From: Spirochaetia bacterium
Lineage (GTDB): Bacteria > Spirochaetota > Spirochaetia > CADAEX01
Direction of reading: 5' to 3'
Assembly (NCBI GenBank): GCA_045606105.1
Contig: JAZURI010000010.1
Span: forward strand, 83,726 to 147,725
Length of the DNA: 64,000 nucleotides
Part shown: piece by piece, positions 52,499-57,148 of the stretch
How the letters are laid out: each line of letters starts with the position of its first letter
Numbering within the stretch: position 1 is the first letter of the stretch
Notes under the pieces: model-generated
Databases searched by the model: none
What the model was told of the DNA's origin: nothing
What the model saw: only the letters and a program-made list of their open reading frames with translations
Position numbers and translations under genes: made by a program

Positions 52499-52633
52499 AT
52501 AAATACCTCTCTATGATATATTATAAGTGAAAATATTTATTATGTAAATGAAAAATCCCCAAAATATCTCTACTTGACAAAATCGACAGTGCAAAGGTAC
52601 GATTTGAATAAGAAACAAACAAGGGGTGGGAAA

Positions 52634-53152
52634 ATGGGATTCATAAAAGATTTCAAGGCATTCATTTCCAGAGGAAATGTGGTTGATATGGCAGTCGGCG
52701 TTGTAGTCGGCGGTGCTTTCAGTAAAATAGTGTCCTCTCTGGTGGCAGATCTGGTGACTCCGCTTATCAGTCTGGCGACAAAAGGGGTCAATCTCCGGGA
52801 GGCATATCTGTGCCTCAATCCTGAAGCAGTGGCAGGGCAGGCTTTTGATTACCAGCTTTTTCCCACAATCGCAAAGGCAAGGGAGGCAGGCTACGCAACC
52901 CTTAACTACGGTATGTTTTTCCAGAACATCATTGATTTCATAATCATAGCTTTCTGTATTTTCTGCGTTATCAGGGCAATTTCCAGAGGCCGGGAGCTGA
53001 TGGAGGCAAAGAAGAAGGCTGAAGAGGCTGCCGCCAAGGCTGCGGAAGAGGCCGCAAAAGCTGCTGCGGAAGCTGCAAAGGCTGCCGAACCTCCTGCAGA
53101 GACAGTGGAAAGCATCCTTAAGGATATAAGGGCAGCCCTTCAGAAAAAGTAA
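52634..53152 (+). CDS. mscL: Large-conductance mechanosensitive channel
   Basis: FIKDFKAFISRGNVVDMAVGVVVGGAF, YG.F...IIDF, LKDIR; start moved to ATG 52634. Confidence 0.93.
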   Translation: MGFIKDFKAFISRGNVVDMAVGVVVGGAFSKIVSSLVADLVTPLISLATKGVNLREAYLCLNPEAVAGQAFDYQLFPTIAKAREAGYATLNYGMFFQNIIDFIIIAFCIFCVIRAISRGRELMEAKKKAEEAAAKAAEEAAKAAAEAAKAAEPPAETVESILKDIRAALQKK

Positions 53153-53255
53153 TAAAAACACTTGACAGGAAAATTGGGTCGGAGGCTCTGAAAACAGGGA
53201 TTTCCGGGGGTATTTTGACATTAAAGAACAAAAAAAAGTTTTTTTCGTAAAAGTC

Positions 53256-53284
53256 TTGCCCCCGACTTCCATTTTGTATAAAGT
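53256..53284 (+). promoter_or_regulatory. Putative sigma70 promoter of dat-ddc-WYL
   Basis: TTGCCC-17 bp-TAAAGT; predicts TSS near 53291. Confidence 0.5.
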
Positions 53285-53301
53285 AAGGTCTTACAACTAC
53301 A

Positions 53302-53384
53302 ATTACTGCCGTTGACAGAGATAAAAGGGCTTATGCCCCAGTTGGAAAATCCCAAGCGCAGCTTGAGTGCTGCATGTAATGGAG
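53302..53384 (+). ncRNA. Candidate structured cis-regulatory 5' leader of dat
   Basis: ATTAC/GTAAT closing stem enclosing hairpins GGGC-TTAT-GCCC, TTGG-AAAATC-CCAA and GCAGC-TTGAGT-GCTGC; ends next to the GGAG RBS. Confidence 0.55.
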
Positions 53385-53391
53385 AACGTCG

Positions 53392-54741
53392 ATGCTTGAA
53401 GAAAAGGGCACCAATCAGTATTACATTACCAGACAGGATTCCACAGAATCTAACGCCCGGAGCTATCCACGCAAATTCCCTTTTGCAATAGCTAAAGCAA
53501 AAGGCTCCTGGGTTGAGGACGTAGAAGGGAACAAATATCTGGATTTTTTGTGCGGAGCGGGAACTCTTGCACTCGGTCACAATGACCCGGAAGTAAACCA
53601 GGCAATGGTTGAAATGCTCACATCTGATGCACCTTTGCATACACTGGATTTAATGACACCTAACAAAGAAGAATTCGTACGTACAGTACTTTCTCTCCTT
53701 CCGCCGGAACTGGCAGAAAACGCCAGGATTCAGTTCTGCAGTCCGTCGGGTACCGACGCCACAGATGCAGCCCTGAAGCTCTGCAAGACAGCTACCGGAA
53801 GATCTTCGGTCATTGCTTTTCAGGGTGGATATCACGGAATGGGACACGGAGCCATGGCCTGTACCGGAAATCTTCATGCCAAGGAAAAGGTACACGGACT
53901 CATGCCTGATGTGCATTTCTTTCCGTATCCATACTCTTACCGCTGTCCTTTCGGGCTGGGGGGAGAAGCCGGAATTGATGCTGCCTGCAATTATTTCGAA
54001 AGGGTTCTCAAGGATCCTGAAAGCGGTATAACAAAACCTGCTGCCGTTATTCTTGAGCCTATCCAGGGAGAGGGAGGAGTAATTCCTGCCCCTGTAAAGT
54101 TCCTTCAGACAATAAGACGGGTAACCAGGGAACTGGATATTCCGATGATTGTTGATGAGATCCAGTGCGGAATCGGAAGATCGGGCAGGCTTTTTGCTTT
54201 CGAATATGCCGATATAGTACCGGATGTGATTCTTACTTCAAAGGCATTGGGCGGTTCACAGCCACTTTCCATCGTTATCTATAACAAGAAGCTTGATAAA
54301 TGGGAGCCGGGAACCCATGCGGGTACCTTCAGGGGCAACCAGCTGGCAATGAGAGCCGGAACAGTGGTTCTCAATCGTGTTTCACAGCCTGAATTCCTTG
54401 CCGATGTGGTCAGAAAGGGAAAGATCATCGAGGAAAGACTCAGGGCCCTCAAGGAAAAGGTTTCCATTATCGGCGATATCAGGGCAAAAGGTCTCATGAT
54501 CGGAACCGAATTCATAAATCCTAACGAAAAACCGGATCATATGGGAGCATATCCCCCTTGCGGTGCCATTGCAGCCAAGGTTCAGAAGCGTTGCTTTCAA
54601 AACAGGCTTATTCTGGAAAGGGGAGGCCGCGACGGAGCTGTCATGCGCTGTCTCTGTGCCCTCAATGTTTCAGACGATGAAGTGCTCAAGGCAATGGAAA
54701 TATTTGAAGAAGCTGTTCTTGCAGCAGATGCGGAGACATGA
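53392..54741 (+). CDS. dat: Diaminobutyrate--2-oxoglutarate aminotransferase
   Basis: ESNARSYPRKFP, LALGHN, YHGM, EPIQGEGG, DEIQ, SKA, HAGTFRGNQLA. Confidence 0.92.
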   Translation: MLEEKGTNQYYITRQDSTESNARSYPRKFPFAIAKAKGSWVEDVEGNKYLDFLCGAGTLALGHNDPEVNQAMVEMLTSDAPLHTLDLMTPNKEEFVRTVLSLLPPELAENARIQFCSPSGTDATDAALKLCKTATGRSSVIAFQGGYHGMGHGAMACTGNLHAKEKVHGLMPDVHFFPYPYSYRCPFGLGGEAGIDAACNYFERVLKDPESGITKPAAVILEPIQGEGGVIPAPVKFLQTIRRVTRELDIPMIVDEIQCGIGRSGRLFAFEYADIVPDVILTSKALGGSQPLSIVIYNKKLDKWEPGTHAGTFRGNQLAMRAGTVVLNRVSQPEFLADVVRKGKIIEERLRALKEKVSIIGDIRAKGLMIGTEFINPNEKPDHMGAYPPCGAIAAKVQKRCFQNRLILERGGRDGAVMRCLCALNVSDDEVLKAMEIFEEAVLAADAET

Positions 54742-56186
54742 AAAATATTTTTCTTACAGATTCTGAAAGTTCAAAAAAAGAGTATAAGGAGGTCATGGGT
54801 CAAACCGTGGCCTCTGTTGTTGATGTGTTCTCGGACGGAAAGGCATATTCGGGTCCTACTCCGGAGGAGCTTCACGACATAGTTCACCAGGATACCATTC
54901 TTCCCGAAAAGGGGCTGGGCTGGGATGTTACCTTCGAAAAGCTGAAAAAGCAGATTCTCCCGAACCTGCTGAGAACTCCTTCCTCCGATTACATGGCTCA
55001 CCTTCACGGTCCGTCACTTTTGGAAACCATTGCGGCGGAGGTGGTTATCTCCACCTTCAACCAGTCCATGGACTCCTGGGATCAGTCTCCCGTAGCTACA
55101 GAGGTTGAGGTTGAGGTTACCGATTATCTCTGCCGGCTCTACGGATACGATGAAAAAGGGGACGGTATCTTTACCTCCGGCGGTTCCCAGTCCAACCAGA
55201 CTGCCATTATCCTGGCCCGGGACTGGTTCTGCAATGAGATTCTTCATCACGATGTGAAAAAATACGGACTTCCCGAAAACTTCAGGAAGCTCAGGATGTA
55301 TACATCGGAGATTTCCCATTTCTCCATGGAAAAAAGTGCCCATGTACTGGGACTCGGCTACGAATCGGTAGTCAAGGTTCCGGTGGACAGTAAAAAAAGA
55401 ATGGATACCGCAGCTCTCAGACGGCTGGTGGAAGAGGATATAGAGAAGGGGAATATTCCGTTCCTGATCGTGGCTACCGTAGGTACCACCGATTTCGGAA
55501 GCATAGATCCTCTCAGCGAGCTTCATGAGATAGCAAAGGCCCATGACATGTGGCTCCATGCAGACGGCGCCTACGGAAGCGGAGTAATCATGTCCTCCAG
55601 GTACGGAAGCCGTGTTGACGGTTTCAGGCTCTGCGATTCCATAACCGTGGATTTCCATAAGATGTTCCTGATGCCTATAAGCTGCAGTGCGGTTCTGGTA
55701 AAGGATGGCTCCGTATTTGAGGCCCTGACTATCCATGCCGATTATCTGAACAGGACAGAGGATGAAGAGGACGGATATGTGAACCTTGTGGACAAGTCCC
55801 TGCAGACAACAAGACGCTTCGATGCACTGAAGGTATGGATTTCCTTCCAGATGAGAGGAAAGGATGGCTGGAGCAGGCTTATTGATACAAGCATGGAGAA
55901 TGCAGCCTATCTTTACGGCAGGCTGAAGGAAAGCAGCGATTTCCATGTGGTTACCGAACCGGAAATCAGTTCCGTGGTTTTCAGGTATATCGGCGACGGC
56001 AGCGAAAACTGCGACGAAATAAACAAGAAGGTCAGAAGAGCCCTGATACATAAGCACGGAGTGGTTATCGGTCAGACAGTGAGCGACGGTCATGTATGCC
56101 TCAAGTTCACATTGCTGAATCCTCTTATCACCCATGAGAAGCTGGACTCCCTGACAGAGCTTATAAGAACTCTGGCAAAAGCATGA
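54738..56186 (+). CDS. ddc: L-2,4-diaminobutyrate decarboxylase (group II PLP decarboxylase)
   Basis: YMAHLH, NQSMDSWDQSP, GTTDFGSID, DFHK, KSLQTTRRFDALK, LKFTLLNP; ATGA overlap with dat. Confidence 0.92.
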   Translation: MKNIFLTDSESSKKEYKEVMGQTVASVVDVFSDGKAYSGPTPEELHDIVHQDTILPEKGLGWDVTFEKLKKQILPNLLRTPSSDYMAHLHGPSLLETIAAEVVISTFNQSMDSWDQSPVATEVEVEVTDYLCRLYGYDEKGDGIFTSGGSQSNQTAIILARDWFCNEILHHDVKKYGLPENFRKLRMYTSEISHFSMEKSAHVLGLGYESVVKVPVDSKKRMDTAALRRLVEEDIEKGNIPFLIVATVGTTDFGSIDPLSELHEIAKAHDMWLHADGAYGSGVIMSSRYGSRVDGFRLCDSITVDFHKMFLMPISCSAVLVKDGSVFEALTIHADYLNRTEDEEDGYVNLVDKSLQTTRRFDALKVWISFQMRGKDGWSRLIDTSMENAAYLYGRLKESSDFHVVTEPEISSVVFRYIGDGSENCDEINKKVRRALIHKHGVVIGQTVSDGHVCLKFTLLNPLITHEKLDSLTELIRTLAKA

Positions 56187-57148
56187 AGAAGCAAAGGGAA
56201 GATAAGGTCAAATCCTTACGACTGCTGGAAATAGACCGGATAATCCGGGAGGGTAAATACCCTAACGCCACCAAGCTGTGCAGGATATTCGAGGTATCCA
56301 GAAGCACAGTCATGAGGGATCTGGATTTTCTCAGGGACCGCTACAATGCCCCTCTGGAATATGACCAGGAGCGGAACGGTTATTACTATTCCGACCCTAC
56401 CTTTTTCATAAAAAGCGTAATGCTTTCCGAAGGGGAGCTTTTTACCGTATCGGTAATGATGCCTCTTCTCGAACAGTACCGCAACACACCTCTCGAAGGC
56501 TCCTTCAAGAGCATTGTCGACAAGATTACAGCCATGCTCCCCGAGGAGGTTTCGGTAAATTCCGGCTTTGCGGCCAAGGATATCGACTTTATCACCGGCC
56601 CTCTGCCAAAAATAGAGGAGGAGGTTTTCAACAACACCTTCCAGGCGGTAAAGACCCGTACCTCCATGGAATTTTCATATCATTCATGTACCAGAAAGGT
56701 GGACCCCTACCATGTTCTCTGTCACAAGGGAGGCTGGTATGTGCTCGGTTACTGTCATGCAAAATGTGATATCAGGGTCTTTTCCCTGGCCAGAATGACA
56801 AATACACGCTGTACCAAGGAATTCTTCAGCATGCCGGAGAATTTCAACGTGAAGGATTATGTGGACCTTTCTTTCGGTATCTGGAACAATCCCGGCAGCG
56901 AACAGAAATATGAACTGGAATTCTGCAGCTCCCTGGCTACCCTGGTTTCGGAACGGATATGGCATGCCACCCAGGAGCTGGAGCATCTTGAAAACGGTTG
57001 TGTAAGACTTTCCTTTGTTTCCAACCAGCCTGAAGAAATCCTTTTCTGGGTGCTGGGCTTCGGCGGAGGAGTAAAGGTTATCAATCCCCCTGAGCTGGCT
57101 GAAAGAGTCAGACAGGAGGCTGAAAAAATACTGAAAAAATACAGCTGA
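56183..57148 (+). CDS. wHTH-WYL-WCX transcriptional regulator (PafC/YafY-like)
   Basis: HTH EVSRSTVMRDLDFLR, VDPY..WYVLG..RVFSLARM, C-terminal WVLGFG..VKVINPPEL; ATGA overlap with ddc. Confidence 0.9.
   Translation: MKKQREDKVKSLRLLEIDRIIREGKYPNATKLCRIFEVSRSTVMRDLDFLRDRYNAPLEYDQERNGYYYSDPTFFIKSVMLSEGELFTVSVMMPLLEQYRNTPLEGSFKSIVDKITAMLPEEVSVNSGFAAKDIDFITGPLPKIEEEVFNNTFQAVKTRTSMEFSYHSCTRKVDPYHVLCHKGGWYVLGYCHAKCDIRVFSLARMTNTRCTKEFFSMPENFNVKDYVDLSFGIWNNPGSEQKYELEFCSSLATLVSERIWHATQELEHLENGCVRLSFVSNQPEEILFWVLGFGGGVKVINPPELAERVRQEAEKILKKYS

Follow-up and report, generated by a model that had tools for sequence, protein, structure and literature searches.

A conserved candidate control element centred on the start codon and early codons of dat in a spirochaete

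A conserved, unannotated element is centred on the start codon and the early coding region of dat in a Spirochaetia bacterium and its relatives, and it is a candidate rather than an established RNA class. Its strongest signal is synonymous constraint in early dat codons, i.e., outside the 100-nt leader in which a sequence-only reading of the window (the whole 64,000-nt stretch of DNA analysed here) had described a riboswitch-like array of hairpins. The block around the Shine-Dalgarno sequence and the start codon, together with these codons, looks like an undescribed translational control element. The explanation that fits best, to which we give slightly less than an even chance when its parts are taken jointly, is that the leader represents, in this species, a modular 5' end common to the dat mRNAs of gut Spirochaetia, and that a translational control domain straddles the start codon, being made up of the block and two coding-region stretches whose candidate helices, H1 and H2, would limit initiation.

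The dat operon and its relatives

The genome is 1.46 Mb in size (99% complete), and in it mscL (52574-53152) is followed, after a 239-nt gap that contains the dat leader, by a plus-strand operon of three genes (Table 1). The names dat and ddc that had been given to the first two genes hold against the protein families, and the product of the operon is probably 1,3-diaminopropane. In a search of the genome nspC gave no match above its cut-off, so that synthesis of norspermidine by the usual route is not evident. The dat-ddc pair is kept in most of the related loci, and the WYL gene is confined, among those compared, to loci of the same genus. The distribution of dat itself is patchy, the gene being present in 7 of 8 genomes of the genus and in none of the order's 11 other genomes, which suggests transfer.

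Orthologues of dat were gathered from 60 relatives, from the 20 genomes of the entire order, from a set of 400 class members (41 of 401 have one at E <= 1e-150) and, by protein similarity, from metagenomes (80 loci); flanks were also fetched for matches to the block pattern in genomes of another family. The leader set was built from 132 loci with the block and at least 120 nt of upstream sequence, loci with shorter upstream sequence being dropped, and it comprised 106 distinct leaders. A pattern scan of the whole collection matched only a congener and two unrelated sequences. No further copies of the element were found in its own genome, and five other genomes gave 10 pattern matches against 10 control matches, those outside dat lying in ORFs or in a terminator-like hairpin.

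The sequence-only reading had placed a plausible promoter before the leader. A consensus scan found none on either strand, and what stands of this claim is a promoter-like box kept across the genus, which would imply a transcription start near 53289. The absence of a terminator was borne out, as no plus-strand terminator-like site occurs in 52900-53700, the sole such site there being P2 read on the minus strand. In metatranscriptome data, an RNA-library contig spans 53270-53431 with one difference, T53375A, from a near-identical strain; contigs of run X1 cover 53270-53431 and none of them covers 53140-53247, and one relative's contig extends 1.6 kb upstream of that relative's own leader. These contigs are weak evidence of expression because they show neither the strand nor the start of the transcript, and the library may contain DNA.

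Table 1. Coordinates of the dat operon, its leader and the conserved stretches within the window
Feature	Position	Strand	Basis or remark
Promoter-like box, TTGCCC (53256-53261), 15-nt spacer, TATAAA (53277-53282)	53256-53282	+	Kept in all eight same-genus upstream regions as TTGC.CC-N15-TATA
Strands of enclosing helix, ATTAC / GTAAT	53302-53306 / 53376-53380	+	Sequence check
P1, CTGCC-GTT-GACAG (previously drawn as CTG-CCGTTGA-CAG)	53306-53318	+	Leader comparison; C.A mismatch at stem positions 4/10
P2, GGGC-TTAT-GCCC	53327-53338	+	Lineage-specific; minus strand terminator-like
P3, TTGG-AAAATC-CCAA	53342-53355	+	Partly kept as TGG...CCA / A/T-rich TCC box, by eye
P4, GCAGC-TTGAGT-GCTGC	53358-53373	+	One of many unrelated hairpins directly 5' of the conserved block
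Initiation block, GTAATGGAGAACGTCGATG (GTAATGGAG..ATG; RNA GUAAUGGAG..AUG)	53376-53394	+	Leader comparison; start codon 53392-53394
Shine-Dalgarno sequence, GGAG	53381-53384	+	Sequence check
Operon dat-ddc-WYL	53392-57148	+	Pfam and NCBIfam matches
dat, class-III aminotransferase (diaminobutyrate aminotransferase)	53392-54741	+	Score exceeds the TIGR00709 'dat' cut-off
ddc, PLP decarboxylase	54738-56186	+	Pyridoxal_deC match; DABA decarboxylase is the top NCBIfam model, with a score under its cut-off
HTH-WYL-WCX regulator	56183-57148	+	Pfam/NCBIfam matches
Region 1, dat codons 7-22	53410-53457	+	Holds CATTAC (53424-53429), CCAGA (53429-53433) and the coding-region hairpin
Candidate helix H1, GTAATG with CATTAC (codons 11-13)	53376-53381 / 53424-53429	+	Complementarity
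Candidate helix H2, CCAGA with TCTGG (codons 49-51)	53429-53433 / 53538-53542	+	Complementarity
Coding-region hairpin, GGATTC-CACA-GAATCT	53436-53451	+	Sits between the strands of H2
Region 2, dat codons 47-55	53530-53556	+	Second patch of synonymous constraint; holds TCTGG

Constraint and complementarity around the start codon

The initiation block is invariant in all 20 aligned leaders and is kept in every leader class, including those that lack P1. The pattern GTAATGG(G)AG..ATG occurs in 48 of 112 leaders, and in another family 82 of 401 genomes match the block pattern, while the control gave no matches. It should be noted that invariance of the block in the constraint set is partly circular, since most sequences were picked by the block itself, whereas the contrast in codon conservation along dat is not. 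In a codon alignment of 68 distinct dat genes (77 before removal of duplicates), the majority-codon fraction is 0.94 for codons 5-14, 0.76 for codons 15-24 and 0.87 for codons 46-55, against 0.44-0.71 (about 0.55) in the remaining windows of ten codons and an average of 0.60 over the gene. Indeed, codons 7-10, 12 and 15 are the identical codon in 67 sequences of this alignment, and CATTAC and its surroundings are identical, synonymous sites included, in 43 of 46 distinct loci. In dat genes with other leader types, the same codons vary freely. Codons 2-6 vary in both sequence and number, and CATTAC is offset from the ATG by 29, 32, 38 or 41 nt; such variation fits a loop between RNA arms, whereas a protein site of fixed spacing would not vary in this way.

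The frozen codons are complementary to the block and to each other. H1, which would cover the first G of the Shine-Dalgarno sequence, is paired in 99.4% of cells and H2 in 97.9% across 59 aligned sequences (L182, a non-dat match, being excluded), and the coding-region hairpin is paired in 88.4%; for any helix whose partner is slid by 1-3 columns, the figure falls to 20-45%. Two pairs of H2 are changed on both sides (A-U to G-C; C-G to A-U or G.U) in five cells, all of which belong to three genomes of one genus. The observed covariation score was reached by 0 of 500 shuffles; one of the double changes, AGA to AGG with TAT to TAC, is automatically compensatory because of the genetic code, and the other varying H2 pair is mismatched in 3 of 5 variant sequences. 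The changes in L052 and L080 keep H1 through G.U pairs, and one leader, L125, keeps the block with neither helix. The near-invariance of H1 and H2 leaves little room for covariation, and the helices were read from the same sequences that score them.

The predicted probabilities of pairing are moderate. The pair probability exceeds 0.5 for H1 in 17 of 53 sequences and for H2 in 18 of 53, the two being often mutually exclusive; for H2 in the window it is 0.07. Of the two helices, only H2 is recovered by a consensus fold of the alignment, and the minimum-energy fold of 53370-53575 includes both. When the window is folded with 60 nt of coding sequence, GUAAU is predicted to be paired (unpaired probability 0.02). 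CATTAC in the coding region is a likelier conserved partner for GTAAT than ATTAC in the leader, i.e., the strand with which the enclosing helix had first been drawn.

Explanations that rest on reading frames were rejected. The upstream ORF ATG-TAA (53374-53379) is AAG-TAA in most relatives, and T53375A in the near-identical strain removes its ATG. On our own reading, an ORF that begins in the block runs for 6 codons in the window before its stop, and its end is not constant in other loci, and neither dual coding nor a +1 frameshift is conserved, again with T53375A in view. A leader-peptide attenuator of the speFL kind depends on a conserved short leader ORF, and none was found.

The upstream leader and competing explanations

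P1 is the only leader hairpin that recurs widely. It is present, in 10 sequence variants, in 62 of the 106 distinct leaders, namely as CTGCCGTTGACAG in 29, CTGCCGTTGTCAG in 10, CTGACGTTGACAG in 6, fully paired [CT]TGCAGTTTGCA[AG] forms in 11 and the remaining variants in 6, and the lineages that keep it have Dat proteins with 72-100% identity. Its pairing holds in 80.6% of cells in the 20 aligned leaders, and in one lineage 3 sequences carry a double change of one pair, from C-G to A-U; to these one further single sequence can be added, L204 (TTGCCGTTGGCAA), whose P1 stem is closed by U-A pairs. The distance from P1 to the block ranges from 12 to 66 nt. In its own genome the P1 pattern matches the leader site and, by chance, one site inside an ORF. 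The 3' half of P1, CGUUGAC, can also pair with GUCGAUG at the start codon, as it does in the minimum-energy folds of the window and four relatives. This candidate was rejected: 89.8% of its cells pair, yet 128 of 500 shuffles do as well, and the pairing is broken in 20 of the 29 leaders with canonical P1, so that no conserved alternative, mutually exclusive fold was found.

The recurrence of P1 bears first on an explanation at the level of DNA, in which P1 would be a palindromic operator (CTGnC-GTT-GnCAG) just past the start site and the frozen codons would be protein sites or an antisense promoter. Such a cause of the constraint is unlikely, though it still has to be reckoned with. The sequence of P1 is more conserved than its pairing, stem positions 4/10 being mismatched in 47 of 62 cases; judged by eye, some 19-28 nt separate P1 from the preceding -10-like box in most leaders; in this genus, the third operon gene codes for a WYL-type transcription factor; and the minus strand of region 1 reads TGgTAATGT, which we take as a weak extended -10. 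However, P1 is about 40-52 nt from the -10 box in L118 and in one class of leaders, and the variable offset of CATTAC tells against fixed protein sites. No neighbouring regulator gene common to the P1-bearing loci was found, the WYL gene being limited to one genus, and the promoter scan was empty on the minus strand as well. An antisense RNA ending at an A-tract and hairpin was likewise discarded, as terminator-like sites are not enriched on the minus strand (9 of 106 leaders, compared with 5 of 106 on the plus strand).

The conserved patches take in the stretch from the Shine-Dalgarno sequence to the early codons, a usual site of action of small RNAs and repressor proteins. A trans-acting RNA or an RNA-binding protein might recognise the single-stranded block and codons 7-22, for example through a small RNA seed against CAUUACCAGA, and H1 and H2 would then be incidental. 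Invariance of sequence instead of covariation is consistent with this explanation. Nonetheless, it is hard to see why such a factor would constrain region 2, which lies 140 nt into the gene, and no partner emerged. The obvious GGA-binding candidate, CsrA, can be set aside together with a CsrA/Rsm-controlled leader, because PF02599 was not found in the 99%-complete genome although control genomes gave matches. A trans-acting factor is therefore rather improbable.

The remainder of the leader bears on the riboswitch originally proposed, i.e., a small-molecule aptamer of P1-P4 inside an ATTAC/GTAAT helix that would control access to the Shine-Dalgarno sequence. Each hairpin and both strands of the outer helix are found in the window just where they had been described. 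As an aptamer of five helices, however, the structure is not shared: across orthologous leaders P1 recurs, the block is kept, P3 is kept in part, and the outer helix, P2 and P4 are not. In the enclosing helix 56% of cells pair, its middle pairs form in only 4 of 20 and 1 of 20 leaders, and there is no covariation. Nor did the 106 leaders show any general complementarity of leader to coding region or to block (mean duplex z -0.10, -0.32 and 0.04 relative to shuffled leaders). P3 shows no compensatory change and is missing from L118 and L045. P2 recurs in a weaker form in one congener (G001), and the same hairpin is found at another position in L064. The region from P1 to the block cannot be aligned and is made of lineage-specific hairpins; P2 and P4 are not homologous between lineages, the stem sequences at the P4 position differ from one lineage to the next, and minimal leaders, L043 and L118 among them, have neither hairpin. 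In 45 of 106 leaders a hairpin with an energy of -5 kcal/mol or below ends within 5 nt of GTAATGG, as compared with 25% of 530 shuffles; a hairpin abutting GTAATGG is thus enriched yet optional.

The same modularity is apparent within the genus, where the long leader occurs only in the window and in G001. Six of eight congeners have a 47-nt leader without P1, P2 and P4, and a seventh (G005) has a truncated locus. More widely, 44 of the 106 leaders lack P1 and bear other 5' modules on the same block: an AACAG-N5-CTGTT hairpin module in 13, a two-hairpin module with a CCCTGTAGAATTTTATGTT linker in 9 (a pattern-based count; inspection by eye gives about 12), the short form of the genus in 8 and other modules in 14. 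By folding energy, the leader is not more stable than expected by chance: for 53285-53400 the z-score is -0.77, 40 of 200 shuffles folding at least as well, and for 20 related leaders the mean is also -0.77 (range -2.67 to +1.39).

In favour of a riboswitch, both the sequence and the shape of P1 are kept, hairpins of variable length occupy fixed insertion points, as in many riboswitch classes, and the leader precedes a metabolic operon with no terminator and no Rfam family. Against it stand, in addition to the loss of the outer helix, P2 and P4, the exchange of whole 5' modules on one core and the chance-level folding energy, the single lineage-level compensatory change in P1 of the aligned set and the lack of a multi-helix junction with conserved unpaired bases. 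A classical leader riboswitch therefore appears distinctly improbable. Equally so is the absence of any regulatory role, with neutral or stabilising hairpins and a block that is simply the strong initiation region of a horizontally spreading gene, for although the folding energy, the congeners without hairpins and the patchy distribution of dat agree with it, neither transfer nor recombination accounts for frozen codons 7-22 and 47-55 amid diverging intervening codons, N-terminus and leader, and P1 is kept between lineages as well.

No Rfam family, including SAM-I, its spermidine variant and any polyamine-linked orphan motif in that database, reaches its gathering score at the leader: Rfam 15 gave no matches over the whole window at gathering scores, only a chance-level microRNA precursor and a Listeria small RNA at E <= 10 in 53100-53450, none at E <= 10 in 53250-53600, and only tRNAs in 20 related dat loci. 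Conserved cis elements are present in the dat leader, and no Rfam model explains them. Translational riboswitches that sequester the Shine-Dalgarno sequence include the SAM-II, SAM-III and preQ1 classes. As in these, the dat element precedes a metabolic gene, has no terminator and has a candidate pairing that takes in part of the ribosome-binding site; unlike them, its pairing partner lies in the coding region, it has no evident conserved ligand pocket and it matches no Rfam family. In the polyamine modulon of Escherichia coli, polyamines reshape mRNA structure near the Shine-Dalgarno sequence and the AUG, for example in oppA, stimulating translation of non-biosynthetic genes that share no conserved motif. 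The control proposed here would likewise act through structure at the initiation region, but the only link of the dat element to polyamines is the function of the gene.

Among RNAs that precede polyamine-related genes, the spermidine riboswitch, a proposed polyamine sensor before polyamine-synthesis genes, is a SAM-I variant with 13 representatives, a four-stem SAM-I fold and control by transcription termination, and is reported not to be triggered by 1,3-diaminopropane (PMC10853860); the dat leader has no SAM-type Rfam match. The ldcC motif, according to the main text of a 2017 survey (PMC5737381), is an orphan 5' UTR motif before decarboxylase and polyamine-related genes, and in this respect resembles the dat leader, which has no relevant Rfam match at E <= 10 (4227 models, which may not include ldcC). 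A 'DABA-DC-AT' motif named in the sequence-only reading would, if it exists as described there, share the gene association; it was found neither in a literature search nor in the main text of that survey (224 motifs; PMC5737381), whose supplements may list it.

Proposed mechanism and significance

From the conservation, the constrained synonymous sites and the complementarity described above we infer that H1 and H2 form in the mRNA and gate translation of dat. The constant core would be the GUAAUGGAG..AUG block and the two short coding stretches, and not the multi-hairpin leader. GUAAUG, whose last base is the first G of the Shine-Dalgarno sequence, would pair with CAUUAC in codons 11-13, and the next bases, CCAGA, with UCUGG in codons 49-51. 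Since the two helices would be adjacent on the same strand, and probably stacked, the ribosome-binding site and start codon would be held in a closed loop of about 40 nt and initiation would be limited. The level of Dat would be set by an effector acting on this junction to stabilise or open it, for which a polyamine (e.g., 1,3-diaminopropane), a protein and a small RNA are candidates. P1, close to the promoter, would be a second conserved element alongside the core, and P2 and P4 would be dispensable, lineage-specific hairpins that may buttress H1. Translational control, which the absence of a terminator had first suggested, thus remains the most plausible reading, and it is its classical leader aptamer that finds no support.

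Even if the element proves to be ordinary, the map of the dat leader is corrected, most of the hairpins in the sequence-only reading being lineage-specific decoration, and the frozen synonymous sites provide precise and cheap targets for mutation. An element with conserved arms inside the coding region would escape searches restricted to intergenic sequence, which may explain its absence from Rfam. To our knowledge, convincing polyamine-sensing RNAs are rare, the SAM-I variant with 13 members being the one validated class among those compared here, and we know of no sensing RNA described for the diaminobutyrate/diaminopropane branch. There is a slim chance that the dat mRNAs represent a new metabolite- or polyamine-responsive class whose domain straddles the start codon. 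Two stacked helices, made of the block before the Shine-Dalgarno sequence and two coding segments 50 and 160 nt downstream, would then act with an interchangeable upstream sensor hairpin (P1 or its alternatives) to determine how strongly the gene for the first enzyme in 1,3-diaminopropane synthesis is translated in gut spirochaetes.

Further leader types upstream of dat

In other spirochaete families, dat, the diaminobutyrate aminotransferase gene, is preceded by a second conserved leader that is distinct from the one in the window. Its parts follow a fixed order, i.e., a variable hairpin, ACTTAA..AAAGGG, a second hairpin and, after approximately 10 nt, a mini-ORF. The stem of the hairpin that follows AAAGGG changes across lineages while its pairing is kept. 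The mini-ORF consists of two codons and a stop (ATG-NNN-TAA/TAG/TGA) and directly adjoins the AGGA ribosome-binding site; its frame is constant, and its stop and middle codons are variable. A search of 20 related dat loci against Rfam returned no match for this leader. Inspection by eye revealed a third type, in which a hairpin is followed by GTTTATTTTCCC, located a few bases 5' of GGAG. Because its TTTTCC is complementary to GGAGAA, this element looks like an anti-Shine-Dalgarno box.

Features in and around the dat-ddc operon, and loci (L-numbers, dat loci from related genomes and metagenomes) carrying the further leader types
Feature	Position or loci	Strand	Basis
MscL C-terminal extension	52950-53152	+	
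Antisense open frame (139 codons) spanning the leader and dat start	53221-53640	-	
dat-ddc unit	53392-56186	+	
Third operon gene, HTH_11-WYL-WCX regulator	56183-57148	+	domain matches
Second leader type	upstream of dat; L119-L122, L128, L130-L135, L139-L141; metagenome loci L059, L063-L100		
Third leader type	upstream of dat; L094, L112, L129, L137, L138, L142		by eye

Neighbouring frames and the third operon gene

The start of the HTH_11-WYL-WCX gene overlaps the stop of ddc, the decarboxylase gene, and among the related dat loci compared, this gene lies beside dat-ddc only in the window's genus. Its product, to which no NCBIfam name was assigned, may control transcription of the operon. As regards the further use of the diaminopropane that Dat and Ddc probably make, no nspC (carboxynorspermidine decarboxylase, TIGR01047) scored above the cut-off in the window's own genome (1.46 Mb), where the best match reached 20 bits. 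The MscL encoded in the window (192 aa) has a long C-terminal extension rich in alanine, glutamate and lysine, and the MscL tails of congeneric species are likewise repetitive and of variable length. The antisense frame is probably spurious, since the leader that it crosses has many lineage-specific insertions and deletions.

Distribution and origin of dat-ddc

In a scan of the order, dat was present in seven of the eight genomes of the window's genus, whereas it was not found in the remaining three genera (0/11 genomes). The closest relatives of dat, identified by genome search and a scan of the class, belong to other families (57-78% identity). Taken together, this distribution and these relationships suggest horizontal transfer of the dat-ddc unit together with its leader.
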